NCBI GenBank assembly: GCA_031549485.1
Contig: JAVBPR010000013.1
Span: 1,007-65,006 of the forward strand
Reading direction: 5' to 3'
Origin: Eubacteriales bacterium
Lineage (GTDB): Bacteria; Bacillota; Clostridia; Oscillospirales; Feifaniaceae
DNA length: 64,000 nt
The notes under the pieces were generated by a model. It worked only from the letters and a program-made list of their open reading frames with translations. It was not told where the DNA came from and searched no databases. Positions 17,862 through 63,157 of the stretch are shown here, one piece after another (position 1 is the first letter of the stretch; each line of letters begins with the position of its first letter). Both the position numbers and the translations under genes were made by a program.

Positions 17862-18401
17862 TTATAAAGCGCTGCCTTTTTTGGGGACAAAAAGCCTCGA
17901 CATATCAGCACCTTCGAGCTCGAGCAACTTTATTTTTGTATTTATACCGCCCGCGTAACCTGTTAGACTGCCGTTCCCGCCTACAACCCGGTGGCAGGGA
18001 ATAATAATAGAAATGGGATTGTGCCCGACAGCACCGCCCACCGCCTGAGGTGACATGCCGGATTTTCCCGATTTTTTGGCTATCTTTTTTGCGATTTCGC
18101 CATAGGCTATAACCTCGCCATAAGGAATCTCGCATAAAATCTGCCATACTTCGCGGCGGAAATCACTCCCGATAGGTGCAAGGGAAAGTTCCGAGACTTC
18201 GGGTTTTTGCCCCGCAAAATATCGGTCCAGCCATTTTTTTGCGGCAGAGAAAATCGGCAAGCCGCCCTTATCGGTCATCGCTTCTGAAATACTGCCGCCG
18301 TGATATTTTTGCCCCTTTATCCAAAGCCCGACAAGGCTTTCGCCGTCAGAGGCAAGGGTGATAATGCCTACGGGAGAAGAATAGGTTGTCTTAAAATACA
18401 T
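17862..18401 (-). CDS. ogt: Methylated-DNA--protein-cysteine methyltransferase
   Basis: 179 aa. It has the IPCHRVV active-site motif, with upstream YGEIA and downstream GYAGG. Confidence 0.93.
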   Translation of the reverse strand: MYFKTTYSSPVGIITLASDGESLVGLWIKGQKYHGGSISEAMTDKGGLPIFSAAKKWLDRYFAGQKPEVSELSLAPIGSDFRREVWQILCEIPYGEVIAYGEIAKKIAKKSGKSGMSPQAVGGAVGHNPISIIIPCHRVVGGNGSLTGYAGGINTKIKLLELEGADMSRLFVPKKGSAL

Positions 18402-20036: not shown

Positions 20037-20570
20037 ATGAAGATAAATATTGAAAATCTCGCGCCTGCGGTAATTCCGGTAGGGGAAGAAGTTTTGCTTT
20101 CCGGAACGGTTTATACAGCAAGGGACGCGGCCCACAAAAAAATATTCGAACTTCTCGAAAAAGGGGAGGCGCTGCCCTTTGAAATTAAAGGCGCATGCAT
20201 CTACTATGCGGGACCGACCGCCGCCGCGCCGGGCAGGATATGCGGCTCTTTCGGACCGACAACTTCGGGAAGAATGGATCCATACACTCCGAGGCTTCTT
20301 GATTTGGGGCTTGCCGCGATGGTCGGCAAGGGCGAGCGCTCGGCTGAAGTTATTGAGGCGATGAAACGCGCGGGCGCGTATTATTTTTGCGCAATAGGTG
20401 GCGCGGGAGCGCTTGCGGCAAGATGTATCACCTCGCTTGAAGTTATCGCTTTCCCGGAGCTCGGACCGGAATCGGTTAAAAAACTGACCTTTGAGAATTT
20501 TCCGGTGATATGCGCGGTCGACAGCGAGGGGAACAATATTTTTGCAAGAGATAAAGCGGAGAATCTATGA
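20037..20570 (+). CDS. Fe-S hydro-lyase beta subunit (class I fumarate hydratase / tartrate dehydratase C-terminal-type)
   Basis: 177 aa. GTVYTARDAAHKK..IYYAGP..GSFGPTTSGRMD..MVGKGERS is the beta-subunit signature. No alpha subunit is adjacent. Confidence 0.8.
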   Translation: MKINIENLAPAVIPVGEEVLLSGTVYTARDAAHKKIFELLEKGEALPFEIKGACIYYAGPTAAAPGRICGSFGPTTSGRMDPYTPRLLDLGLAAMVGKGERSAEVIEAMKRAGAYYFCAIGGAGALAARCITSLEVIAFPELGPESVKKLTFENFPVICAVDSEGNNIFARDKAENL

Positions 20571-38224: not shown

Positions 38225-39301
38225 ATGAAAATCGATTTACAAAAGTACGGTCTGTCTGACCGGTTTATCCAGGAAGCGACTTTATATCCGGGCTTGTTTT
38301 TAGCGCGCGTTACCGAGCAGCATCGTGAGCTTTATAAAGTCGCGACCGAAAATGGAGAACTGTCTGCCGGCGTTTCGGGAAAATTTATTTATCGAGCGGA
38401 TTATCAGTCGGATTTTCCGGCGGTCGGAGATTTTGTCATGATTGACCGCATTGAAAAGGAAGCCGGAAACGCTGTTATACACCATATCCTGCAAAGAAAG
38501 AGTTTGCTCACGCGGCAGGGTGCAGGCAAAGAAAGCTCCGAGCAGATAATCGCGGCGAACGTCGACACGATTTTTATCTGCATGTCGCTAAATAACGATT
38601 TTAATATTAGGCGAATCGAGCGGTATTTAACTATTGCATGGGACAGCAGGGCAACTCCGGTTATCGTGCTGACCAAATCAGATTTATGTGATAATTTAGA
38701 GCAAAAGCTAAAAGAAGTTGCTTCGGTCAGTATCGGCGTTGACGTTATTGTCTGCTCTTCCGAAAGCAAGGATGGTTACAACGCTGTCAGCGAATATATC
38801 AAACCGTTTGAAACAATTGTTTTTATCGGTTCTTCAGGTGTCGGGAAGTCAACCTTGATAAATCGGCTTATCGGAAATGACGCGCTTGAAATCGGGGAAA
38901 TAAGAAAAAATGACGATAAAGGAAGGCATACAACCACGCATCGTCAGATGCTGCTGCTTCCAAATGGCGGAATCGTTATTGATACGCCGGGCATGCGCGA
39001 GCTCCAAATTTTCACCGGCGATCTGTCAAAAACGTTCGAAGATATTGAAAAACTTGCCGCAGGCTGTAAATATAAAAACTGCTCTCATGGAAACGAGCCC
39101 GGATGTATGGTCAGAAAGGCGATTGAAGATAATATTTTATCCGCAAACCGCTTCGAAAGTTATCAAAAATTGCAGCGCGAAAGCTCATATGAGGGATTAA
39201 ATTCACGCCAGCTTGAAAACGAAAAACTTAAAAGAATGTTCGGCGGAAAAGGCGAGATGAAGCAAATGCGCGATTTTATAAAAAACAAAAAGCACAAATG
39301 A
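38225..39301 (+). CDS. rsgA: Ribosome small-subunit-dependent GTPase A
   Basis: 358 aa. It has circularly permuted GTPase motifs (TKSDL, GSSGVGKSTLINRL, DTPGMRE) and a C-terminal zinc knuckle (CKYKNCSHGNEPGC). Confidence 0.93.
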   Translation: MKIDLQKYGLSDRFIQEATLYPGLFLARVTEQHRELYKVATENGELSAGVSGKFIYRADYQSDFPAVGDFVMIDRIEKEAGNAVIHHILQRKSLLTRQGAGKESSEQIIAANVDTIFICMSLNNDFNIRRIERYLTIAWDSRATPVIVLTKSDLCDNLEQKLKEVASVSIGVDVIVCSSESKDGYNAVSEYIKPFETIVFIGSSGVGKSTLINRLIGNDALEIGEIRKNDDKGRHTTTHRQMLLLPNGGIVIDTPGMRELQIFTGDLSKTFEDIEKLAAGCKYKNCSHGNEPGCMVRKAIEDNILSANRFESYQKLQRESSYEGLNSRQLENEKLKRMFGGKGEMKQMRDFIKNKKHK

Positions 39302-39404
39302 AAATATAAAAACTTAATCGGTTTATACAAATAACAACACCCCGGGCGATTGCCCGGGGTGTTGCTATATTTATCAGTAAATTATATTACTCTTACGCTC
39401 AAAA
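39295..39404 (+). repeat. 110-bp direct repeat, copy A (rsgA stop region + bidirectional terminator + last ~7 codons of serA)
   Basis: By manual alignment it is identical to 41237-41346 except for 3 mismatches. Confidence 0.95.
39335..39364. terminator. Bidirectional terminator hairpin (copy in repeat A)
   Basis: CAACACCCCGGGCgattGCCCGGGGTGTTG, 13-bp stem. Confidence 0.8.
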
Positions 39405-39530
39405 GCGTTTCGACTCACTACCTATTGAAAATGAAAATTTGGTCGTGTTGCGCAACAACGATAACAGCTATGCCGTCCTCAATCAGATGGCATAGCTGTG
39501 AAGCATAAATAAAAAATGTTATATTTATTA

Positions 39531-40160
39531 TTAGTTTTCCGAATAGTCAACGCTTAATAACAAGTTGTCAGAAAAACAAACTTCTATAAATTGTTTATTA
39601 ATTGAATAAGTGCAGAATCTCCAATTAAGAAGATTGTTTTTTTCGTCCGATAAGAGTTTTGCCCCTGCATACTGAAATATATCATTAACGGCTTCAAAAG
39701 ATAATCCTATATTTGATTGAAGTGTTACCGAGAGTTGATAAAAGTTTTTTTTGTCAGTTATATCATAATTTGGTGCAATATAATCTATTTGCAATGCAAG
39801 GTTGTCTTCGGTAAAACATATGGCAATATATTGATGATTTCCGTTTGTCCACACGCAATATCGCCACTCAATCGTTTCTTGCTTGTAGTCGGACAATTGT
39901 AATGCACCTATCCCATCGAACTTAGATTCAAACACTGTGTATGCGGTTCCAATGTCGTTTTTTATTTTTGAGTAAAACTGAAAGAAATCTTTTTCATCAA
40001 TATTATTTTTTTGATTGTCAACCAATATGCTATCGGAGTCAGCTTCGCTAATATTTGTAGCATGATCTGGGGAGTTTTCGTGTTTTACTATTACGTCTTC
40101 AGTACAGCCAGTGAGTGATATTATAAAGACAAATATATTTAAGATTAATATTCGTTTCAT
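39531..40160 (-). CDS. Lipoprotein with two tandem ~70-aa repeats
   Basis: 209 aa with a lipobox (ISLTGC). There is an internal duplication (FFQFYSKIKNDIG..WRYCVWTNGNHQYIAICFTEDNLALQIDY versus FYQLSVTLQSNIG..WRFCTYSINKQFIEVCFSDNLLLSVDY). Confidence 0.75.
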   Translation of the reverse strand: MKRILILNIFVFIISLTGCTEDVIVKHENSPDHATNISEADSDSILVDNQKNNIDEKDFFQFYSKIKNDIGTAYTVFESKFDGIGALQLSDYKQETIEWRYCVWTNGNHQYIAICFTEDNLALQIDYIAPNYDITDKKNFYQLSVTLQSNIGLSFEAVNDIFQYAGAKLLSDEKNNLLNWRFCTYSINKQFIEVCFSDNLLLSVDYSEN

Positions 40161-40257
40161 TGTAGTAATTCCTTTTTAAATTTATTTACAGCTAATAAAG
40201 CGGAGGAATTTGATATTGTTAGTTCTGCGAAGCTCGATCCGGCACACGTATGCGTGA

Positions 40258-40947
40258 TTACCATGAGAAAACTTTTTTGCCGCCGTTCTCATTGGCTTGT
40301 AATTCTGATATTTCGACAGTGTCTCCGTTGATTGGTTTATATTTACTTACATACACTGTAATCTTTGCAACTGTTGGGTATTCCCAAAGGCTTATTTCAT
40401 AGCTTCTTGTTTCTCCGGCTTTTATATTAGCGCTACATTGGAATTCTGTATAGTTTGTCCCGTCGAAATTATAAACATTATTCCCGTATGCGTCTGTGCA
40501 GATAACTGTTAGTGTAAATGCGTCCAACTCATTGGCTAATACGTTTTTTACTTTAAGCGTATATAAACTAAGTCCCCATGTATCGCGAGAAGCAGATACA
40601 AACTCCAAAGGCACATACTTATTGTCAATAGTTGGGGTGCTTGAGTCAGGCGCAACACCAGTATATGCTTTTCCGGTTTCGATGACAGCTTGCGAAAGCA
40701 CAACGTCCCAATATACATTGAACTGAGATTTTGTGCCACTTAATGCTTGAGCAACTGAGCGCAACTGTATATAGTTGCTGTCTTCGATGTTATATGACAT
40801 ATCAAAAGAGATTTCTTTACCGTCTAGCATGAACTTCGTTCTGCTTGGCATTGCTGTCGTCTCTCCGTTACTTGCAAAGACTGTAGATGAGGAGGCCGCA
40901 AAGACTGCAACAAGAGAAACAATTGTGATTAGTTTTTTCATAATCAT
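40258..40947 (-). CDS. Secreted protein with a copper-amine-oxidase-N-terminal-like domain and a C-terminal beta-sandwich-like domain
   Basis: It has a signal peptide (MIMKKLITIVSLVAVFAASSSTVFA). F.LDGKEISFD..YIQLRSVAQALSG..VYWD resembles the Cu_amine_oxidN1 stalk domain. The start was trimmed to the ATG after GAGGAG. Confidence 0.65.
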   Translation of the reverse strand: MIMKKLITIVSLVAVFAASSSTVFASNGETTAMPSRTKFMLDGKEISFDMSYNIEDSNYIQLRSVAQALSGTKSQFNVYWDVVLSQAVIETGKAYTGVAPDSSTPTIDNKYVPLEFVSASRDTWGLSLYTLKVKNVLANELDAFTLTVICTDAYGNNVYNFDGTNYTEFQCSANIKAGETRSYEISLWEYPTVAKITVYVSKYKPINGDTVEISELQANENGGKKVFSW

Positions 40948-41236
40948 TATCCTTTCTCCTCGCATATTCGCCTGCGAGAATGGCGTTGCTATTTTGGACA
41001 TATTTATCTACAAATGAAATAGTTTTTAGTTAGTTCCGCAGAACTTGCTCAGTAATAACCATAGCGATGGGATTGCATCTTCCAAACTACTGTCTTGCTC
41101 CAATTTTAGCTTTAACTCATATGTTAGGCGAAAATGCTTGGCTGTATAAAAAACCTTGCCTTTATAGTTGCATAATACGTTTTTGTTATCAGACTGTCAA
41201 GGGCGGTTATATTTATCGTGCTAATCGAGGCATATT

Positions 41237-41346
41237 CAAATGAAAATATAAAAACTTAATCGGTTTATACAAATAACAACACCCCGGGCGGTTGCCCGGG
41301 GTGTTGCTATTTGTATCAGTAAATTATATTACTCTTACGCTCAAAA
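41237..41346 (+). repeat. 110-bp direct repeat, copy B (overlaps the true serA 3' end)
   Basis: See copy A. The terminator hairpin copy is at 41277-41306. Confidence 0.95.
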
Positions 41347-42484
41347 TATCGGGAATAGATTTAATTTTATCGACAATCTCGGCCGAAACCGGCTCAATTG
41401 TTTCAAGAACGGTATATCCATACTCGTCTTTGGATTTATTAAACATATTCTCGATATTGATGCCGCAATCGGAGACGGCGGCTGTTATCGCGGTTATCTT
41501 ATGCGGAATATTGCGGTGGATTATGCAAAGCCTTGACATATCGGTCGAGGGAAGCGCAAGGCTCGGCATATTAACGCTATTTACGATGCTTCCGTTTTCA
41601 AGATAATCAATAAGCTCGGTGCAGGCGGCGATTGCGCAGTTGTCTTCGCTTTCCGGTGTGGAAGCGCCGAGATGAGGAATGCAAATCGCGTTTTTCATCT
41701 TAAGCGTTTTCTCGTTCGGGAAGTCGGTTACATAGCTTGCAACCTTGCCGCTCTCGAGGGCTTTTGCCATATCGTCGTCGTTCACAATTTCGCCGCGCGA
41801 GAAATTGAGGATGCGGACGCCGTCCTTCATCTGCGCAAAAGTTTTTTCGCAGAACAAACCTCTTGTTTCGCCGTTTAGCGGCATATGAATCGAAATATAA
41901 TCAGCCTCTTTGAAAATCTCTGTTATATCATTTATTTTGGCGATATGCCTTGAAATCCGCCATGCGGAAGTGACCGACATAAAGGGATCATATCCCATAA
42001 CGTCCATACCGAAAGAACGCGCTGCGTTAGCGACGAGAACGCCGATTGCGCCAAGACCGACAACGCCAAACTTTTTGCGGTAAACCTCGGGTCCGCCGAA
42101 CGCGCTTTTGCCTTTTTCGACAAGAGCGGGGATTTCATCGCCTTTATCGGCGATTGTTTTTACCCATTCGATGCCGTCTGCAACTTTTCGCGAAGAAAGA
42201 AGCATACCGGTGAGAACAAGCTCTTTAACGGCATTTGCGTTAGCGCCCGGGGTGTTGAAAACGACGATTCCGGCTTCGCTGCAACGCTTTATCGGAATGT
42301 TGTTTGTTCCTGCGCCGGCGCGGGCAATTGCTTTCAGCTTATCGCCGAACTCCATTTCAAGCAAATCGCCGCTGCGGACGAGAATACCGTCCGGGTTTTC
42401 GCTGTCGTTTAAAGCGTATTTGCTTTTGTCAAAAAGATCGGTGCCGCAAGCTGCAATTTTATTAAACTGTTTAATTTCAAACAT
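41324..42484 (-). CDS. serA: D-3-phosphoglycerate dehydrogenase with a C-terminal ACT domain
   Basis: 386 aa. It has a 2-hydroxyacid dehydrogenase fold (GVVGLGAIG NAD motif) and a C-terminal ACT-like ~70 aa. It is adjacent to serC. Confidence 0.9.
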   Translation of the reverse strand: MFEIKQFNKIAACGTDLFDKSKYALNDSENPDGILVRSGDLLEMEFGDKLKAIARAGAGTNNIPIKRCSEAGIVVFNTPGANANAVKELVLTGMLLSSRKVADGIEWVKTIADKGDEIPALVEKGKSAFGGPEVYRKKFGVVGLGAIGVLVANAARSFGMDVMGYDPFMSVTSAWRISRHIAKINDITEIFKEADYISIHMPLNGETRGLFCEKTFAQMKDGVRILNFSRGEIVNDDDMAKALESGKVASYVTDFPNEKTLKMKNAICIPHLGASTPESEDNCAIAACTELIDYLENGSIVNSVNMPSLALPSTDMSRLCIIHRNIPHKITAITAAVSDCGINIENMFNKSKDEYGYTVLETIEPVSAEIVDKIKSIPDILSVRVI

Positions 42485-42500: not shown

Positions 42501-43580
42501 TTATTTATTTTCCGCCTCGAATTTTTTCATAAATTCAACGAGTGCGGTGATACCTTCGATAGGCATTGCGTTGTAGATTGAAGCTCTCATTCCGCCGACC
42601 GAGCGGTGACCTTTAAGGTTTACAAAGCCGTTTGCCGATGCTTCTTTAACGAATTTCGCGTCGAGCTCGTCGTTGCCTGTAACGAAAGGAATGTTCATCA
42701 AAGAGCGGTCTTTTTTGTCAACCGTTGCGCTGAACATTGCGGAACTGTCGAGAAAATCATAAAGAACAGCTGCTTTTTTCTCGTTTATGGCTTTCATGCC
42801 AGCAAGTCCGCCGTTATCCTTAACCCACTGCAAAACAAGGCCGCAAATATATATCGCGTAGCAGGGCGGGGTGTTGTACATAGATTCATTTTCCGCATAT
42901 GTAACGTAATTGAGCATAGTCGGGGTGTAATCACGGGCTTTGCCGAGAAGGTCTTCTCTGATTATCGCGACCGTAAGCCCTGACGGCCCCATATTCTTTT
43001 GGGCGCCGGCATAAATCATCGCATATTTTGAAACATCGACCGGTTCAGAGAGAATGCAGGAACTCATATCCGAGATAAGCGGAATTTCGCCCGCGTTCGG
43101 AGTTTCGTGCCATTTTGTGCCGTAAATGGTGTTGTTTTCACATATGTGCAGATAATCGGCATCTTTCGGAATAAGCGAATAATCGATCTCCGGAATATAT
43201 GAAAAAGTTTTATCTTTCGAGCTGCCGACAACAACACAGTCGCCGTAGCGGGAAGCCTCGTCATAGGCTTTTTTCGCCCATTGACCGGTAATAGCAAAAG
43301 CCGCTTTTCCGCTTCCGTTAAGGAAATTAAGCGGAATCATAGCAAACTGCATGGAAGCGCCGCCCTGTAAAAACAGAACCTTGTAATTATCCGGAATATT
43401 CATAAGCTCGCGAAGCAGAGCTTCGGTGTTATGCAGGATAGTCTCAAAAGGTTTTGAGCGGTGGCTCATCTCCATAACCGACATGCCGGAATTACCCTGG
43501 TCAAGCATCTCGACCTGCGCTTTTTCAAGCACCGGCAAAGGCAAGCAGGACGGGCCGGCAGAAAAATTGTAAACTCTCAT
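42501..43580 (-). CDS. serC: Phosphoserine aminotransferase
   Basis: 359 aa. MRVYNFSAGPS.. start, GGAS, and AGAQKN (PLP lysine region) are typical of SerC. RBS GGAGGA. Confidence 0.93.
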   Translation of the reverse strand: MRVYNFSAGPSCLPLPVLEKAQVEMLDQGNSGMSVMEMSHRSKPFETILHNTEALLRELMNIPDNYKVLFLQGGASMQFAMIPLNFLNGSGKAAFAITGQWAKKAYDEASRYGDCVVVGSSKDKTFSYIPEIDYSLIPKDADYLHICENNTIYGTKWHETPNAGEIPLISDMSSCILSEPVDVSKYAMIYAGAQKNMGPSGLTVAIIREDLLGKARDYTPTMLNYVTYAENESMYNTPPCYAIYICGLVLQWVKDNGGLAGMKAINEKKAAVLYDFLDSSAMFSATVDKKDRSLMNIPFVTGNDELDAKFVKEASANGFVNLKGHRSVGGMRASIYNAMPIEGITALVEFMKKFEAENK

Positions 43581-45907: not shown

Positions 45908-46236
45908 TGACGGTAAATGATTTCGCTTCGCAAATCGGCGCCGAATTTATCGCCGGTACCGGCGGCGGAAACAGAGTTATAAGCGGTTGCTATATCGGCG
46001 ATTTGCTCAGCTTTGTCATGGGAAAGGCGCAGTGCGGAGATTGCTGGATAACTATAATGTCAAACCTGAATGTTATAGGAGTAGGCTCGCTCACCGATGT
46101 TGCATGCATTCTTTTGGCGGAAGGCGTAAAACTTGATCAAAACGCGAAAGAAAAAGCGGATGAAGAGGATATCGCGGTTTTGTCGTCCGATAAATCCGCA
46201 TATGAGCTTGCAGCCTGTCTTTCAAAGCTGATATGA
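45904..46236 (+). CDS. DRTGG domain protein (second copy)
   Basis: 110 aa with an ATGA overlap with the hydS-like stop. Its layout is similar to the first DRTGG gene. Confidence 0.7.
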   Translation: MMTVNDFASQIGAEFIAGTGGGNRVISGCYIGDLLSFVMGKAQCGDCWITIMSNLNVIGVGSLTDVACILLAEGVKLDQNAKEKADEEDIAVLSSDKSAYELAACLSKLI

Positions 46237-46970
46237 AAGCCTTTTATGATCTGCATATCCATACCTGCCTTTCGCCGTGCGCAGAGGATGATATGACACC
46301 GGTGAATGTGGTGAATATGGCGAAACTCGCAGGGATTGATATCATAGCGGTAACCGATCATAACACCGTGAAAAACTGCGGCGCCGCAATCAAATGCGGT
46401 GAAGAGGCGGGGATAACGGTTATCCCGGGAATGGAGCTTACAACCGCCGAGGAAGCGCATATCATCTGCCTTTTTCCGGAACTTTCGCTTGCCGAAAAAT
46501 TTGAGCTCGAACTGGATAAAAGAAGAAGTAAAATTCCAAACCGAGCCGATATTTTCGGGAGGCAGCTTATTGTTGATAAAGATGAGAATATAATTTCGGA
46601 GTATCCTTTTATGCTCTCGGCGGCGACCGAAATAGGAACTTTTGAGATTGTCGGCCTTGTCGAAAAATTCGGCGGGGCAGCATATCCCGCACATATTGAC
46701 AGGCAATCGATGAGCGTTGTTGCTACGCTCGGATTTATCACGCCCGATATGAATTTTAAAACGGTCGAATTTTCAAGGGAAGGCATAGAAAACGGTATGC
46801 CCGAAAAAATGAAAAAACTTTATCTTGATTTGCCGTATATCACCGCTTCGGATGCTCACCGTCTTGAGGATATCAAAGACGCGAAATATTGCATAGAAAT
46901 TGAAGATATTTCTGCTGAAAATATAGTGGATTTTATTCGCCGCGGGGAGCTAAAGCTAATTGCAAATTAA
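46233..46970 (+). CDS. PHP-domain phosphoesterase
   Basis: 245 aa. The YDLHIHTCLSPC and AVTDHNT metal-binding motifs are PHP-type. ATGA overlap with the upstream gene. Confidence 0.8.
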   Translation: MKAFYDLHIHTCLSPCAEDDMTPVNVVNMAKLAGIDIIAVTDHNTVKNCGAAIKCGEEAGITVIPGMELTTAEEAHIICLFPELSLAEKFELELDKRRSKIPNRADIFGRQLIVDKDENIISEYPFMLSAATEIGTFEIVGLVEKFGGAAYPAHIDRQSMSVVATLGFITPDMNFKTVEFSREGIENGMPEKMKKLYLDLPYITASDAHRLEDIKDAKYCIEIEDISAENIVDFIRRGELKLIAN

Positions 46971-47090: not shown

Positions 47091-47594
47091 ATGGGTGCCA
47101 AAAAAGTTTTGCCGTTTAAAGGAACGGCGGAGCAAGAGGCGAAGCTTTATGAAGTTATCGCGCATTGGAAAGGAAAAGACGGAGGGCTTATGCCTGTGCT
47201 GCAGGAGGCGCAGGAGATATACGGCTATCTTCCCGAAGAAGTGCAGATGATGATTTCGGAGGGAATGCATGTTTCGATGAGCGAGATTTACGGGGTAATC
47301 ACTTTTTACTCGCAGTTTAATCTCTCGCCGAAAGGCAAATACAAAATCGGTGTCTGCCTCGGAACCGCTTGCTATGTTCAAAATGCGGGCGATGTTTTTG
47401 AGAGGCTTAAAATCGTTTTGGGACTTGAATCGGGCGAATGCACCGAAGACGGCATATTTTCGCTTGATGGGACACGCTGCCTCGGATGCTGCGGACTTGC
47501 GCCGGTGCTTATGGTAAACGATGACGTTTACGGGCGCTTGAAACCCGAAGAAGTTGACAAAATCGTTGAAAAATACAGGAAACTCGAAGCATAA
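47091..47594 (+). CDS. hydC: NuoE-like [2Fe-2S] subunit of the bifurcating hydrogenase
   Basis: 167 aa. It has the C..GTAC...C.GCC thioredoxin-like 2Fe-2S motif. Strong RBS AAGGAGGAG. Confidence 0.9.
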   Translation: MGAKKVLPFKGTAEQEAKLYEVIAHWKGKDGGLMPVLQEAQEIYGYLPEEVQMMISEGMHVSMSEIYGVITFYSQFNLSPKGKYKIGVCLGTACYVQNAGDVFERLKIVLGLESGECTEDGIFSLDGTRCLGCCGLAPVLMVNDDVYGRLKPEEVDKIVEKYRKLEA

Positions 47595-48145
47595 TGAAAG
47601 AGCTTTCGCTTAATGTTCTTGATATCGCCGAAAATTCCGCAAAAGCCGGTGCCTTGCTTATAAAAATTTATTTGCGCGAAGACAGCGCAAATAAAAATAT
47701 CGAGATAATAATATCCGATAACGGGTGCGGCATGGACGAAGATTTTTTAAAATCGGTTGTCAGCCCCTTTACAACAACGAGAACAACAAGGAAAATCGGG
47801 CTTGGCATTCCGCTTTTCAAGGAAGCGGCGGAAATAACGGGCGGCAGTTTTGAAATCACCTCGAAGGTCGGGGAAGGAACAGAAGTCAAAGCTACATTTT
47901 TAAGCGACAGCATAGACTGTATGCCGGTCGGCGATATGGCCGGAACTTTTGTGACACTTGTCAGGGGACATCCCGAAATTGACTTCTATTATTATAGGTC
48001 GATGGATGATGAGTTTTTTGAGGTATCAACCCTTGAAATAAAACAAATCATGGACGGAATCCCGATTGACAGTTACGAAGTTTGCAGTTTTATCACCGAA
48101 TTTATCAATGAAAATACAACCGAAATTTTAGGAGGAAATATATGA
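47594..48145 (+). CDS. Histidine-kinase-like ATPase (HATPase_c only) embedded in the hydrogenase operon
   Basis: 183 aa. It has N-box NVLDIAENS, G1 DNGCGM and G2 GLGIPL. There is no DHp/His domain, TM or sensor domain. It overlaps both neighbours. Confidence 0.8.
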   Translation: MKELSLNVLDIAENSAKAGALLIKIYLREDSANKNIEIIISDNGCGMDEDFLKSVVSPFTTTRTTRKIGLGIPLFKEAAEITGGSFEITSKVGEGTEVKATFLSDSIDCMPVGDMAGTFVTLVRGHPEIDFYYYRSMDDEFFEVSTLEIKQIMDGIPIDSYEVCSFITEFINENTTEILGGNI

Positions 48146-59917: not shown

Positions 59918-60843
59918 GCATTGATATTTTGTGTGAAAAGATAATAAAAAAGCAAAATCCGACCGTCCTTGGTCTTGATCCGTTGCTTTCATACATACCG
60001 GAAAGCATTTTAGAAAACGCAAAAGCCGGGAATAAAAATCTTTTTGAGGCGGCGGCAGACGCGATTTTTCAGTTTAATAAGGGGCTTATTGACGCAACCT
60101 GTGAAATCATTCCCGCTGTTAAGCCGCAAGCGGCATATTATGAGCTTTACGGGCCCGAGGGGATGGCGGCATATAAAAAGACGATTGGTTACGCGAAGGA
60201 AAAAGGGCTATATGTCATCGCCGATGTAAAGCGCGGAGATATCGGGAGCACCGCCGCCGCTTACGCAAAAGCGTATCTTGGCAAAACCGAGCTTTTCGGC
60301 GAGAGCGAAAGCGCGTTTGATTGTGACTGCTGCACCGTTTCGCCTTATCTCGGCAGTGACGGAATTATTCCTTTTATCGATATTTGCAAAGAAGAGAATA
60401 AATCGATATTCATGCTTGTAAAAACGAGCAACGATTCATCGGGCGAGCTTCAGGATTTGAGCGCGGACGGGCAGAGTATTTATAAAAAAATGGCGGTTCT
60501 TGCCGAAAAGCTCGGGGAAGGAACAACCGGCAAATACGGTTATTCCGCTTGTGGTGCGGTTGTCGGCGCAACATATCCGGCGCAGCTTCGCGAACTTCGG
60601 TCATTTGCGCCGCACACGTTTTTCCTAGTGCCGGGATATGGCGCGCAGGGCGCGGGCGCGTCCGATGTCGCGGGCGGTTTTGACAGCCGCGGACTTGGCG
60701 CGATTGTCAACTCTTCAAGGGGAATAATTTGCGCTTATAAAGCTGCCGGAATGTCGGCGGAGAATTACAAGGAAGCGGCGGCCGGCGAAGCTGAAAATAT
60801 GAAAAAAGCGCTTCTTGGTGCGGTCGGCGGAAAAATAGGCTAA
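59914..60843 (+). CDS. pyrF: Orotidine 5'-phosphate decarboxylase (long, type 2)
   Basis: 309 aa. GLDP.., ADVKRGDIGSTA and the C-terminal GR..I pattern fit type 2 PyrF. Confidence 0.9.
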   Translation: MSIDILCEKIIKKQNPTVLGLDPLLSYIPESILENAKAGNKNLFEAAADAIFQFNKGLIDATCEIIPAVKPQAAYYELYGPEGMAAYKKTIGYAKEKGLYVIADVKRGDIGSTAAAYAKAYLGKTELFGESESAFDCDCCTVSPYLGSDGIIPFIDICKEENKSIFMLVKTSNDSSGELQDLSADGQSIYKKMAVLAEKLGEGTTGKYGYSACGAVVGATYPAQLRELRSFAPHTFFLVPGYGAQGAGASDVAGGFDSRGLGAIVNSSRGIICAYKAAGMSAENYKEAAAGEAENMKKALLGAVGGKIG

Positions 60844-62539: not shown

Positions 62540-63157
62540 ATGATAACAATTTATCTTATTCGCCACGGCGAGGCCGAGGGGAATGCGCTTGGAAGGTTTC
62601 AAGGGCATACAGACGGCGATTTGACCGAGAAAGGCATAATTCAGGCGAAAAAACTCGGGGAGAGAATGCGCGAAAAAAATCTGCATAAAATATACTCGTC
62701 CGATTTAAAACGAGCATATGAAACCGCGCTTGCAATAAGCGATAACGGAAGAATACCGGTTGAAGCTATGCAAAGTCTTCGGGAAATCAACGCTGGAGAG
62801 TGGGAAAACAAATCTTTTTTAGAGCTTGAAAGCGCACAGCCAGAGCTTTTTCAGCAGTTTATGCAGGCACCGCATCTTTTTCTTATTCCTGGCGGCGAAA
62901 GCTATATCGACCTGCGCGCACGGGCGGTTGATGCATTTAAAGAAATTGTCGCGGAAAACAAGGGAAAAAGAATCGCGATTGTCTCGCATGGCGCCTTTAT
63001 CCGAACTCTGGTCGGTTATATTAAAGGTCTTTCGCTTACAAGCCTTGGCGAACTCGGATTTTGCAATAACACCGCGGTAACAAAAATTATCGGCGACGAT
63101 GACGGACAGTATGAAGTTCGGTATTTATATGACGACGCGCACTGTAAAGGCATATAA
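62540..63157 (+). CDS. Histidine phosphatase (phosphoglycerate mutase) family protein
   Basis: 205 aa. RHGE catalytic motif at the N-terminus, plus a downstream SHG. Confidence 0.85.
   Translation: MITIYLIRHGEAEGNALGRFQGHTDGDLTEKGIIQAKKLGERMREKNLHKIYSSDLKRAYETALAISDNGRIPVEAMQSLREINAGEWENKSFLELESAQPELFQQFMQAPHLFLIPGGESYIDLRARAVDAFKEIVAENKGKRIAIVSHGAFIRTLVGYIKGLSLTSLGELGFCNNTAVTKIIGDDDGQYEVRYLYDDAHCKGI

Follow-up and report, generated by a model that had tools for sequence, protein, structure and literature searches.

A two-gene islet between rsgA and serA bracketed by a duplicated terminator region, a probable product of host recombination

Insertions with long target duplication have been described for restriction-modification genes (Nobusato et al., 2000; Furuta et al., 2010, PMC2853133). 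The repeats of the published cases are variable in length (46–423 bp), 93–100% identical and unique in the genome, and frequently extend over an adjacent gene at its 3' end (PMC2853133). The inserts are without mobility genes and often deviate in GC content from the genome average, with a lower value in one described case and a slightly higher one in another, and the insertions were proven via an empty site in a sister genome (PMC2853133). During conjugation in E. coli, substrates with one-sided homology produce mostly single-crossover products with duplications of 109–950 bp (PMC3240628). Furthermore, homology-facilitated illegitimate recombination (HFIR) has been put forward as the source of the orphan arrays of Rhs and T6SS loci (PMC5361080).

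The islet described here lies between rsgA and serA in a window of 64,000 nt (the whole stretch of DNA that was analyzed). The open reading frame list places an rsgA-type GTPase gene of 358 amino acids at 38225–39301 on the + strand (Pfam RsgA_GTPase, E = 3e-57). On the − strand, serC (42501–43580), coding for a class-V aminotransferase (Pfam Aminotran_5, E = 1e-45), is the first gene of a serC-serA operon and is followed downstream by serA (41324–42484), which codes for a 386-amino acid protein of the 2-hydroxyacid dehydrogenase family (Pfam 2-Hacid_dh_C, E = 7e-39). The 1832-nt islet (39405–41236, − strand) is unique in the genome and is bracketed by a 110-nt direct repeat. The left copy (39295–39404) contains the last codon and stop of rsgA and the right copy (41237–41346) the live 3' end of serA, so both genes remain intact, as an initial annotation of this DNA had proposed. 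Like the published long target duplications, the locus is a short, mobility-gene-free block between long target repeats. That class is defined by a repeat of more than 30 bp that is otherwise unique and by an insert below 20 kb without a mobility gene; the 110-nt sequence has two copies in 1.63 Mb and the 1832-nt insert has two genes. Unlike the published cases, the cargo consists of surface or secreted proteins rather than restriction-modification genes, and the five islets that we identified in one 1.6-Mb Clostridia-type genome are unusually dense. We regard the rsgA/serA islet as a real and fairly ordinary scar, probably of host recombination, in an already described class.

The two repeat copies are identical at 107 of 110 positions by repeat search, MAFFT alignment and direct comparison, which confirms the 3 mismatches initially reported. 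The mismatches are A/G in the hairpin loop (39349/41291), A/T (39369/41311) and T/G (39371/41313), all non-coding, and they leave identical runs of 54, 19, 1 and 33 nt. Because the 110-nt sequence has just two copies in the 1.63-Mb genome, chance is excluded. Local alignments of the 60–300 nt beyond the repeat ends scored no better than shuffles, and the lone match with p = 0.02 (one of six windows) was a 23-nt patch out of register with the repeat. A longer, decayed duplication was rejected, as the repeat does not extend past either end. The rsgA part of each copy (C-AAA-TGA) amounts to 1 1/3 codons plus the stop, slightly less than the "last codons" first assigned to it, and the serA part is 23 nt (the stop plus 6 2/3 codons), in line with the ~7 terminal codons expected. 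In the left copy, the serA frame, translated by hand, is closed by two stops directly upstream of where the repeat ends, so this serA 3'-end relic (39382–39404, − strand; identical to 41324–41346 by direct comparison) is non-coding. Exactly in the middle of the repeat (40 + 30 + 40 nt), each copy has the hairpin noted earlier, with a 13-bp stem, a 4-nt loop and a ΔG of −30 to −42 kcal/mol including A/T extensions. The left hairpin (39335–39364; GATT loop; ΔG −29.8 on the + strand and −34.2 on the − strand) resembles a terminator of rsgA on the + strand and of the two cargo genes on the opposite strand. The right hairpin (41277–41306; GGTT loop; ΔG −42.3 on the − strand) is terminator-like for serA and forms, together with its A/T extensions, a near-perfect palindrome with 23-nt arms. 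An Rfam search returned sub-threshold matches only, due to the hairpin.

The genome was assembled from a metagenome, and a repeat of this kind could in principle be an artefact of joining mixed strains. The draft has 34 contigs whose ends share overlaps of 141 nt, as is characteristic of de Bruijn assembly with k = 141, and the ~3% difference between the copies is what co-existing strains would show. However, the 110-nt repeat is shorter than k = 141 and has a longest identical run of 54 nt, so the copies share no 141-mers. By this reasoning, each repeat variant is k-mer-linked to its own pair of flanks, and the junctions of the serA relic with the cargo and of the cargo with the repeat must occur in reads. 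The estimated contamination of 0.18% and the ~1.4 kb of genome duplicated between contigs at 95–97% identity also speak against an artefact, which we consider very improbable.

On the same strand as serA, the islet forms a self-contained unit of a promoter-like site, an orphan secreted-protein gene, an orphan lipoprotein gene and a hairpin. The promoter-like site (TTGACA-17-TATTAT; 41172–41200, − strand), recognized by its match to the consensus at 11 of 12 positions, lies just within the islet and ~225 nt upstream of the secreted-protein gene (40258–40947, − strand). This gene codes for a protein of 229 amino acids, counted from the ATG behind GGAGAAAGG, with a signal peptide. The lipoprotein gene (39531–40160, − strand; GC 0.321) codes for 209 amino acids and a signal peptide with the lipobox L-T-G-C, and the islet's own hairpin, with 14-nt arms, follows 32 nt downstream (39464–39499, − strand). 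The non-coding stretches of 126, 97 and 289 nt leave no room for a hidden mobility gene, and Pfam identified none in the cargo. The insert has a GC content of 0.362, compared to 0.452 and 0.460 for the adjacent 5 kb on either side, and its genes are among the lowest 0.6–5% for GC and the lowest 2–4.5% for GC3 of the long open reading frames in the genome. This GC and codon profile agrees with the AT-rich, compositionally foreign insertion that the initial annotation had described, as do the Pfam and repeat searches with its claim that integrase, transposase and terminal inverted repeats are lacking. Transposons and insertion sequences have inverted repeats at their ends, a transposase and a duplication of 2–15 bp; the first two are missing here and the 110-nt duplication, as had been pointed out, far exceeds a transposition target-site duplication.

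Database searches with the cargo proteins left the lipoprotein an orphan and placed the nearest homologues of the 229-amino acid protein in unrelated gene contexts. The lipoprotein had no Pfam match, no homologue among 5.8 billion proteins and, in 1.84 billion representatives, remote repeat-domain matches only; its single-sequence AlphaFold model (pLDDT 33) is uninformative. The 229-amino acid protein has a conserved N-terminal domain weakly resembling Cu_amine_oxidN1. Its C-terminal half is variable and Ig-like, and in some homologues this half resembles DUF4352. Its match to PF07833 (E = 1.8e-3) scored 18.7 bits, below the cut-off of 24.2 bits, and thus lends little to the label "CuAO-N-like" that it had been given. 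The alignment-based AlphaFold model has a pLDDT of 71–77 in the N-terminal domain and low values in the remainder, and neither a Foldseek search with the fold nor a profile search of PDB sequences produced a significant match in the PDB. There is no second copy of the cargo in the genome, and a paralogous origin was rejected.

Relatives of the genome were searched for the same junction. An exact-protein look-up of RsgA gave no match, and in a search of 5.8 billion proteins the best RsgA homologue reached 73% identity, with 1 member in its 90% cluster. No genome of the same genus was present among 40 related genomes, and scans of metagenome and genome contigs for the exact hairpin pattern returned chance matches only, in unrelated GC-rich organisms. 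Family relatives keep the serC-serA pair. The 358-amino acid type of rsgA occurs in only 6 of 19 family genomes (the islet's own genome counted) and never adjoins serA, and the region downstream of serA is different in each family relative examined. As a result, no empty site can be inferred at the family level. The same variability gives some room to an old fixed arrangement or a duplication in place. Either the cargo would be ancestral and a copy of the terminator segment would have been made beyond it, or the cargo would have been captured after a tandem duplication. Yet the 23-nt dead serA relic indicates that the left copy derives from serA-adjacent sequence, and the GC and GC3 of the cargo fall within the lowest few percent of the genome. 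Furthermore, copying across 1.8 kb would have no homology to start from, and capture would take a second event exactly between two tandem copies. The chances of an old or in-place origin are thus slim, and the duplication-and-capture option of the initial annotation is less favored on the last point.

We also identified the same architecture at no fewer than four further loci of the 1.63-Mb genome, where low-GC islets with lipoprotein or secreted-protein genes are flanked by direct repeats of a neighboring gene end, terminator or promoter region (coordinates of these loci refer to contigs of the genome assembly, unlike the window positions used above). On C2, a 412-nt repeat (46166–46577 and 47503–47914; 97.6% identical) comprises the last 368 nt of prfB, from the GGQ motif, plus the terminator, and encloses 925 nt with the gene of a 179-amino acid lipoprotein. 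The C5 repeat (18257–18297 and 20423–20463; 42 nt) holds the last 6 nt of a tRNA-Glu gene and the terminator, whose hairpin is again central (6 + 30 + 6 nt), and flanks 2125 nt (GC 0.36) coding for a 678-amino acid secreted RCC1-repeat protein. Part of a terminator forms the 22-nt repeat on C4 (60719–60740 and 62897–62918), around 2156 nt (GC 0.34) that hold two genes, one of them for a GLUG lipoprotein. On C11, a 245-nt repeat (137036–137280 and 139160–139404; 97.1% identical) spans a promoter/operator region plus 16 codons of an XRE-type gene and has no terminator, which the other four of the five repeats include; its insert codes for a 599-amino acid paralogue of the adjoining giant gene. 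Across the genome, low-GC DNA is bracketed by unique direct repeat pairs at 8 loci, compared to 2 loci for inverted pairs as a control.

The prfB copies are informative about the origin of the differences between repeats. All 10 of their mismatches are synonymous and in the third position, a pattern with a probability of 1.7e-7 under random substitutions and of 2.5e-5 if only one copy is constrained. This suggests allele exchange with strains of ~97% identity rather than decay in place. Indeed, the identity of three different repeats is 97.1–97.6%, which is more simply explained by one donor-recipient divergence than by three equally old events. By analogy with prfB, the differences between the rsgA/serA copies may be allelic as well. 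The two prfB copies differ in the manner of alleles under selection, so the insertion of such islets cannot be dated by the divergence of their repeats.

The anatomy of the locus, its foreign composition, the lack of mobility genes, the recurrence of the architecture and the synonymous-only prfB divergence are observed, whereas we infer the route of recombination, its donor and any excision at the present day. Most probably, the islet is the product of host recombination by one homologous crossover and one illegitimate join. The cassette of accessory genes would then be passive, and it was probably spliced into the shared rsgA/serA terminator region by the host without an enzyme of its own. 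DNA of a related strain, with the cargo beside a conserved anchor (serA plus the terminator, or the whole intergenic segment), would enter the cell in linear form or as a re-circularized fragment. An intact ComEC gene in the genome makes DNA uptake conceivable, although this is weak evidence. A single RecA-type homologous crossover within the anchor would be followed by an illegitimate join, either between donor and recipient (HFIR-like) or between donor ends, forming a circle that would integrate in Campbell fashion. The 110-nt segment would be duplicated because the illegitimate join fell on the anchor side of the homology end. Both genes would be kept, with one terminator copy per side, and the ~3% difference between the copies would reflect exchange between alleles of ~97%-identical strains, not slow decay in place.

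The topology of the locus (homologous segment, foreign DNA, homologous segment) is that of Campbell-type insertion-duplication, and the 109–950 bp reported for single-crossover products bracket the 110 nt. With its 54-nt identical run, the repeat is also adequate for RecA-dependent recombination. The single crossover proposed in the initial annotation is the best-supported mechanism, if indirectly, through the four or more recurrences, the prfB synonymous sites and the conjugation products (PMC3240628); a circle is a putative intermediate. The 22-nt and 42-nt sister repeats fall below what RecA requires and are too short to be a circle's sole homology. Those loci are better explained by a linear donor whose long anchor lies on one side. 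Consistent with one fixed homology end and one variable illegitimate join, the repeats on C2, C5 and C4 have one boundary 3–7 nt beyond the T-run of the anchor-gene terminator and the other 22–412 nt upstream. The sister repeats thus follow one boundary rule, with one end just beyond the terminator and the other variable. In the Rhs, CDI and T6SS loci with orphan gene ends (PMC5361080), a conserved anchor gene recombines homologously and a strain-specific neighbor is added, not swapped. The old gene end is displaced downstream as a relic in those systems, and this pattern matches the prfB and XRE-gene loci and, by analogy, serA. In contrast, the cargo here is no toxin-immunity module, the duplicated piece is nearly all intergenic, and classical laboratory HFIR is an insertion with deletion.

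Integrase-mediated insertion, too, has as its hallmark direct repeats by which target genes regain their 3' ends. The islet could therefore be a remnant or cis-mobilizable derivative of a site-specific integrative element, with the repeats as attL and attR and the integrase lost or acting in trans. CIMEs of Streptococcus thermophilus are integrase-less, att-flanked derivatives of integrative conjugative elements. Both they and the islet are integrase-less blocks bordered by direct repeats at a housekeeping gene's 3' end, potentially excised or mobilized in trans. Furthermore, the tRNA-Glu locus resembles a classical tRNA-end site, the perfect 13-bp palindrome with its 4-nt spacer could act as a core site, and the genome encodes four tyrosine recombinases, all on contigs other than that of the islet. 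However, the 1832 nt contain no integrase or excisionase gene or fragment, and we identified neither an ICE-type element sharing the att site nor a third copy of the 110-nt sequence in the genome. Site-specific elements always cross over at a short conserved core, and for this sequence a single occupied site is known. CIME repeats are short att cores common to a living ICE family, whereas repeat length and sequence vary among the five loci. These unrelated repeats of 22–412 nt would demand five specificities, all lost, and the 412-nt repeat, which begins midway through prfB, does not look like an att site. The common 97% identity and synonymous-only differences are also more simply explained by recombination. 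We thus consider an integrase origin unlikely.

The central hairpin at rsgA/serA (40 + 30 + 40 nt) and tRNA-Glu (6 + 30 + 6 nt) is not predicted by the recombination model. Its symmetry favors a true long target duplication, in which nicks staggered by ~110 nt around the palindromic terminator would capture a foreign fragment and be filled in, the 3 differences being added by later strain exchange. Processing of the hairpin or a stalled fork, with template switching, could cause such a break. A terminator hairpin is part of four of the five repeats, the published class has no settled mechanism (PMC2853133) and the cargo-proximal part of the repeats is free of mismatches, as expected of once-identical copies. 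The mismatches indeed avoid the part near the end-of-homology boundary, with none in the last 86 nt of the prfB repeat. Alleles joined at insertion explain this placement no better than a later exchange between strains that ended within the repeat. If such an exchange took place, the original duplication could have had identical copies and another mechanism. In addition, the repeat ends lie inside both genes (7 nt of rsgA and 23 nt of serA), so the linear-donor model needs a donor that already carried one stub. On the other hand, the prfB repeat is off-center, reaching 368 nt into the gene, and the C11 repeat has no terminator. Terminators lie at gene ends, where insertions are tolerated, so that selection, and not the mechanism, may account for the terminators within the repeats. 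We know of no bacterial enzyme that makes staggered cuts of 110–412 nt. Overall, staggered nicking is a doubtful source of the duplication.

A bolder reading of the central hairpins is that the five islets stem not from recombination accidents but from a previously undescribed route of insertion directed at terminator hairpins, which we think improbable. An activity of the host, or a transient one of foreign origin, would make a symmetric opening around the palindromic terminator and capture small surface-protein cassettes, a step to which we also give little credence. It is similarly a long shot that a duplication of hairpin plus flanks by this route produced the hairpin-centered repeats at rsgA/serA and tRNA-Glu. 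If true, this route would let mobile-element-poor gut Clostridia add insulated surface-protein cassettes.

As a probable product of host recombination, the islet is a clean, delimited case of a small, mobile-element-poor genome gaining strain-specific surface-protein genes without a dedicated mobility enzyme. It adds a Clostridia-type case other than restriction-modification genes to the known class and opens no new question. The islets should be removable through ordinary recombination between their repeats and probably represent presence/absence polymorphisms of cell-surface proteins, themselves candidate targets in phage or host interactions.

A 110-nt direct repeat lies between the convergent rsgA and serA genes, with one copy on the rsgA side (window positions 39295-39404) and the other on the serA side (41237-41346). 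By repeat search, MAFFT alignment and direct comparison, the copies are identical at 107 of 110 positions, bearing out the three mismatches reported in the initial annotation. The mismatches are A/G in the loop of a hairpin (39349/41291), A/T (39369/41311) and T/G (39371/41313). Alignment of the sequence beyond the repeat revealed that the similarity stops sharply at either side, and a search of the whole 1,627,267-base, 34-contig genome returned two occurrences only, both at rsgA/serA. Each copy carries a GC-rich hairpin (13-bp stem, 4-nt loop) with A-rich and T-rich shoulders and a 23-nt piece of serA, in line with the initial annotation; the rsgA portion is smaller than the 'last codons' originally proposed. 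It consists of the final codon and stop (C-AAA-TGA) of the rsgA-type GTPase gene (38225-39301; Pfam RsgA_GTPase, E=3e-57). In the right copy, which contains the 3' end of serA (41324-42484), the 23 nt make up the final 6 2/3 codons of serA and its stop. In the left copy, the serA-frame reading of the same 23 nt runs on into two stop codons, and this piece is, as read from the sequence, a non-coding relic. Such a dead serA relic shows that the left copy derives from a stretch formerly located next to serA. Folding computations gave the right-copy hairpin a better energy (-37 to -42 kcal/mol) than the left one (-30 to -34 kcal/mol). A stretch of 14 nt within serA (42244-42257, codons F-N-T-P-G-A) is the exact complement of the terminator 5' arm plus one loop base (39335-39348 and 41277-41290), so that a third copy of the stem sequence is present in the serA mRNA. 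With roughly 0.2 matches of this kind expected in 7 kb, this one is probably due to chance.

The 1832 nt between the copies (39405-41236) have a GC content of 0.362, compared to 0.452 and 0.460 in the 5-kb flanks and 0.456 in the genome, which upholds the AT-richness noted at the outset. Read along the serA strand, the insert has the predicted layout of a complete transcription unit. A promoter-like site matching the consensus (TTGACA-17-TATTAT, 41200-41172) is followed by a gene for a 229-aa protein with a signal peptide (40947-40258), a gene for a 209-aa lipoprotein with the lipobox LTGC (40160-39531) and the insert's own hairpin with 14-nt arms (39499-39464), after which comes the left repeat copy. 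The cargo is thus downstream of serA and in the same orientation, yet it has a promoter-like site of its own. Ranked among the long ORFs of the genome, both cargo genes are in the bottom 0.6-5% by GC and the bottom 2-4.5% by GC3, and a search of the genome itself found no paralogue of either one. A 58-aa ORF on the plus strand (41067-41243), located in the 5' untranslated region of the islet and ending at the relic rsgA stop in the right repeat, is probably spurious.

The insert carries no mobility gene and has too little space for one. This agrees with the initial annotation, which had listed no integrase, transposase or inverted terminal repeats and had judged the duplication too long for a transposition target site. 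Transposition is excluded by the lack of terminal inverted repeats and transposase and by the 110-nt length of the duplication. The serA relic, the foreign composition of the insert and parsimony argue against duplication and capture in place, which had also been proposed, and against an ancient fixed arrangement.

A search of 5.8 billion proteins found no homologue of the 209-aa lipoprotein. Among 1.84 billion representatives, its residues 69-138 had weak similarity to the repeat unit of two giant proteins and to nothing else. By these searches, this protein ranks as an orphan. In the 229-aa protein the N-terminal domain is conserved, with homologues 57-81% identical over that part, and there are two homologues that are 42-46% identical across 83% of its length. 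The initial annotation correctly recognized a lipoprotein and a secreted protein, although its 'CuAO-N-like' label for the latter finds little backing: the N-terminal domain matches Cu_amine_oxidN1 weakly (E=1.8e-3, under the Pfam cut-off), and 4 of 36 family members match. The C-terminal half is variable and DUF4352-like in 6 of the 36 members. Structure prediction and fold searches of the cargo yielded nothing reliable.

Contig ends of this genome share exactly 141 nt (the first 141 nt of contigs C3 and C29 and the last 141 nt of C9 and C17), indicating a de Bruijn assembly with k=141 that branched at a shared k-mer. The repeat is shorter than k and the longest identical run between its copies is 54 nt. 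Hence, no 141-mer is common to the copies, k-mers link each variant to its own pair of flanks, and the junctions must exist in the reads. We regard an assembly artefact as very improbable. The end of C2, the start of C28 and C26:10744-11394 have in common a segment of about 650 nt at 96-97% identity, which may represent a further duplicate of the allele type or, alternatively, a strain variant at which the assembly broke.

The genomic neighborhood was compared among relatives. No other genome of the same genus was among the related genomes compared, and an exact-protein look-up found no other record of the RsgA protein. Its closest relative among 5.8 billion proteins is 73% identical and belongs to a 90% cluster with a single member. 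Scans of metagenome and genome contigs for the hairpin pattern returned chance matches only. The serC-serA pair is conserved at the family level, as is the gene module upstream in one relative. The sequence 3' of serA differs in every family relative examined, marking the serA 3' flank, on this comparison, as a synteny break point. The rsgA type occurs in 6 of 19 family genomes (this one counted) and adjoins serA in none. The 358-aa product of the rsgA-type gene is at most 65% identical to those in the other family genomes carrying the gene, and its best matches (70-73%) come from other orders (Desulfitobacteriaceae, Aminipila and Sebaldella). Such a distribution suggests either horizontal movement of the gene itself or a paralogue separate from the canonical RsgA.

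Self-comparison of the genome identified the same architecture at four or more other loci (contig coordinates, in which the window is C1:1007-65006). On contig C2 (45424-47914), a 925-nt insert with a gene for a 179-aa lipoprotein lies behind prfB and precedes a truncated second copy of the prfB end and terminator, a copy that begins exactly at the GGQ motif. The repeat (46166-46577 and 47503-47914) is 412 nt long and 97.6% identical; 368 nt of it come from the end of prfB and a further 44 nt include the terminator. On C5 (18188-20463), a 42-nt repeat (18257-18297 and 20423-20463) contains the last 6 nt of tRNA-Glu(UUC) and its terminator, and the copies differ solely by one-base changes in the A-run and T-run (A7/T5 versus A6/T6). 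Its 2125-nt insert (GC 0.36) codes for a 678-aa secreted protein with RCC1 repeats whose N-terminus, like that of the 229-aa islet protein, is weakly Cu_amine_oxidN1-like. On C4 (60659-62947), an exact 22-nt repeat (60719-60740 and 62897-62918) corresponds to one half of a MerR-like gene's terminator, namely its loop, 3' arm and T-run, and flanks 2156 nt (GC 0.34) with genes for a 395-aa GLUG-motif lipoprotein and a 249-aa protein with no Pfam match. On C11 (<131000-139737), a 245-nt repeat (137036-137280 and 139160-139404; 97.1% identical) spans a divergent promoter/operator, common also to an XRE-type regulator gene, and the first 16 codons of that regulator. A giant repetitive ORF (>6 kb, minus strand, start at 137043) begins at one copy and a 599-aa paralogue at the other; the latter is the insert's product and is 46% identical to the repeat units of the giant ORF. 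To gauge chance occurrence, we counted unique repeat pairs flanking DNA whose GC is at least 0.07 below that of the adjoining sequence and found eight loci with direct pairs versus two with inverted pairs. A 32-nt exact direct repeat on C17 (19135-19166 and 19478-19509), around 311 nt of GC 0.23, resembles the start of a leader or small RNA.

The structure of the rsgA/serA islet matches the definition of an 'insertion with long target duplication', a class collected for restriction-modification genes (Nobusato et al., 2000; Furuta et al., 2010; PMC2853133). The definition calls for a unique direct repeat >30 bp around an insert of <20 kb without mobility genes, and the repeats described (46-423 bp, 93-100% identical) often overlap a gene 3' end (PMC2853133). 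With its unique 110-nt repeat and 1832-nt insert without a mobility gene, and leaving aside the further criterion of an empty site in a sister genome, the islet appears to be an instance of this class. The published cargo consists of restriction-modification genes, whereas this genome carries lipoproteins and secreted proteins.

The best-supported reading of the islet is a product of host recombination. One homologous crossover in a conserved anchor (the gene or segment carrying the homology) would be accompanied by one illegitimate join. A join closing the incoming fragment on itself would produce a circle for Campbell-type single crossover; if instead the far end of the fragment was linked to the recipient, at a point anchor-side of where homology stops, linear DNA would yield the same topology. 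The 22-nt (C4) and 42-nt (C5) repeats are too short to be a circle's sole homology, which favors the linear version with a long anchor at those loci; either version works for the 110-nt repeat. The Campbell-type insertion first suggested is best supported as single-crossover recombination, with the circle disfavored at C4 and C5, and the insertion interpretation as a whole is partly supported, its underlying observation being confirmed. Conjugation assays in E. coli for homology-facilitated illegitimate recombination yielded 56 single crossovers among 60 products, and in the 14 single-crossover products that were sequenced, 109-950 bp of the homologous segment was duplicated (PMC3240628). For Rhs, CDI and T6SS loci, incoming modules have been proposed to displace the old ends of genes (PMC5361080). 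The genome has an intact ComEC gene, which lends weak support to DNA uptake.

Repeat boundaries are consistent with host recombination. At C2, C5 and C4, the terminator T-run of the anchor gene is followed after 3-7 nt by one repeat boundary, and the other is 412, 42 or 22 nt upstream, within prfB, the tRNA or the hairpin. Such a pattern would be expected from one end-of-homology point and one illegitimate join at an arbitrary position. A decayed or cis-mobilisable site-specific element is a possible alternative, yet it would need five specificities, all without an integrase; moreover, the 110-nt repeat has no third copy and the genome's four tyrosine recombinases sit on other contigs. Break-and-fill-in at palindromes stays in contention, because the hairpin is exactly central in the repeats at rsgA/serA (40+30+40 nt) and tRNA-Glu (6+30+6 nt). 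A dedicated cassette-insertion route centered on terminator hairpins seems unlikely.

Differences between repeat copies carry an allelic signature. All 10 differences between the prfB copies are synonymous and in third positions, although 21% of random substitutions in this stretch would be expected to be synonymous (probability of 1.7e-7, or 2.5e-5 if one copy was constrained and the other free). Since nothing should keep the truncated copy under selection, the differences arose when both sequences were working prfB alleles of different lineages. Furthermore, the 110-, 412- and 245-nt repeats, although unrelated, agree in their identity (97.1-97.6%), which is most simply explained by one donor-recipient divergence between strains about 97% identical. 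The mismatches avoid the part of the repeat nearest the end-of-homology boundary: the last 86 nt at prfB and 108 nt at C11 are free of them, and the rsgA/serA repeat is mismatch-free for 54 or 33 nt, depending on the anchor gene chosen. Mismatch-free ends are expected if the copies started out identical and an exchange with a ~97% identical strain later terminated within the repeat. An equivalent possibility is that an ordinary double crossover, one of its ends falling within the repeat, carried the whole islet from strain to strain. The allelic signature proves inter-strain recombination at these loci but is no proof that two alleles gave rise to the duplication itself. The seven mismatches at C11 cluster in 63 nt of operator-like repeats (CGAAACAAGTT / GAAATTTGTTTCG), which neither version (two alleles at insertion or later exchange) predicts.

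As a consequence of this architecture, every gene is predicted to retain a terminator. Recombination between the copies, which share the 54-nt identical run, would excise the islet exactly, with a single hybrid terminator left behind. For this reason, the islet probably represents a presence/absence polymorphism.
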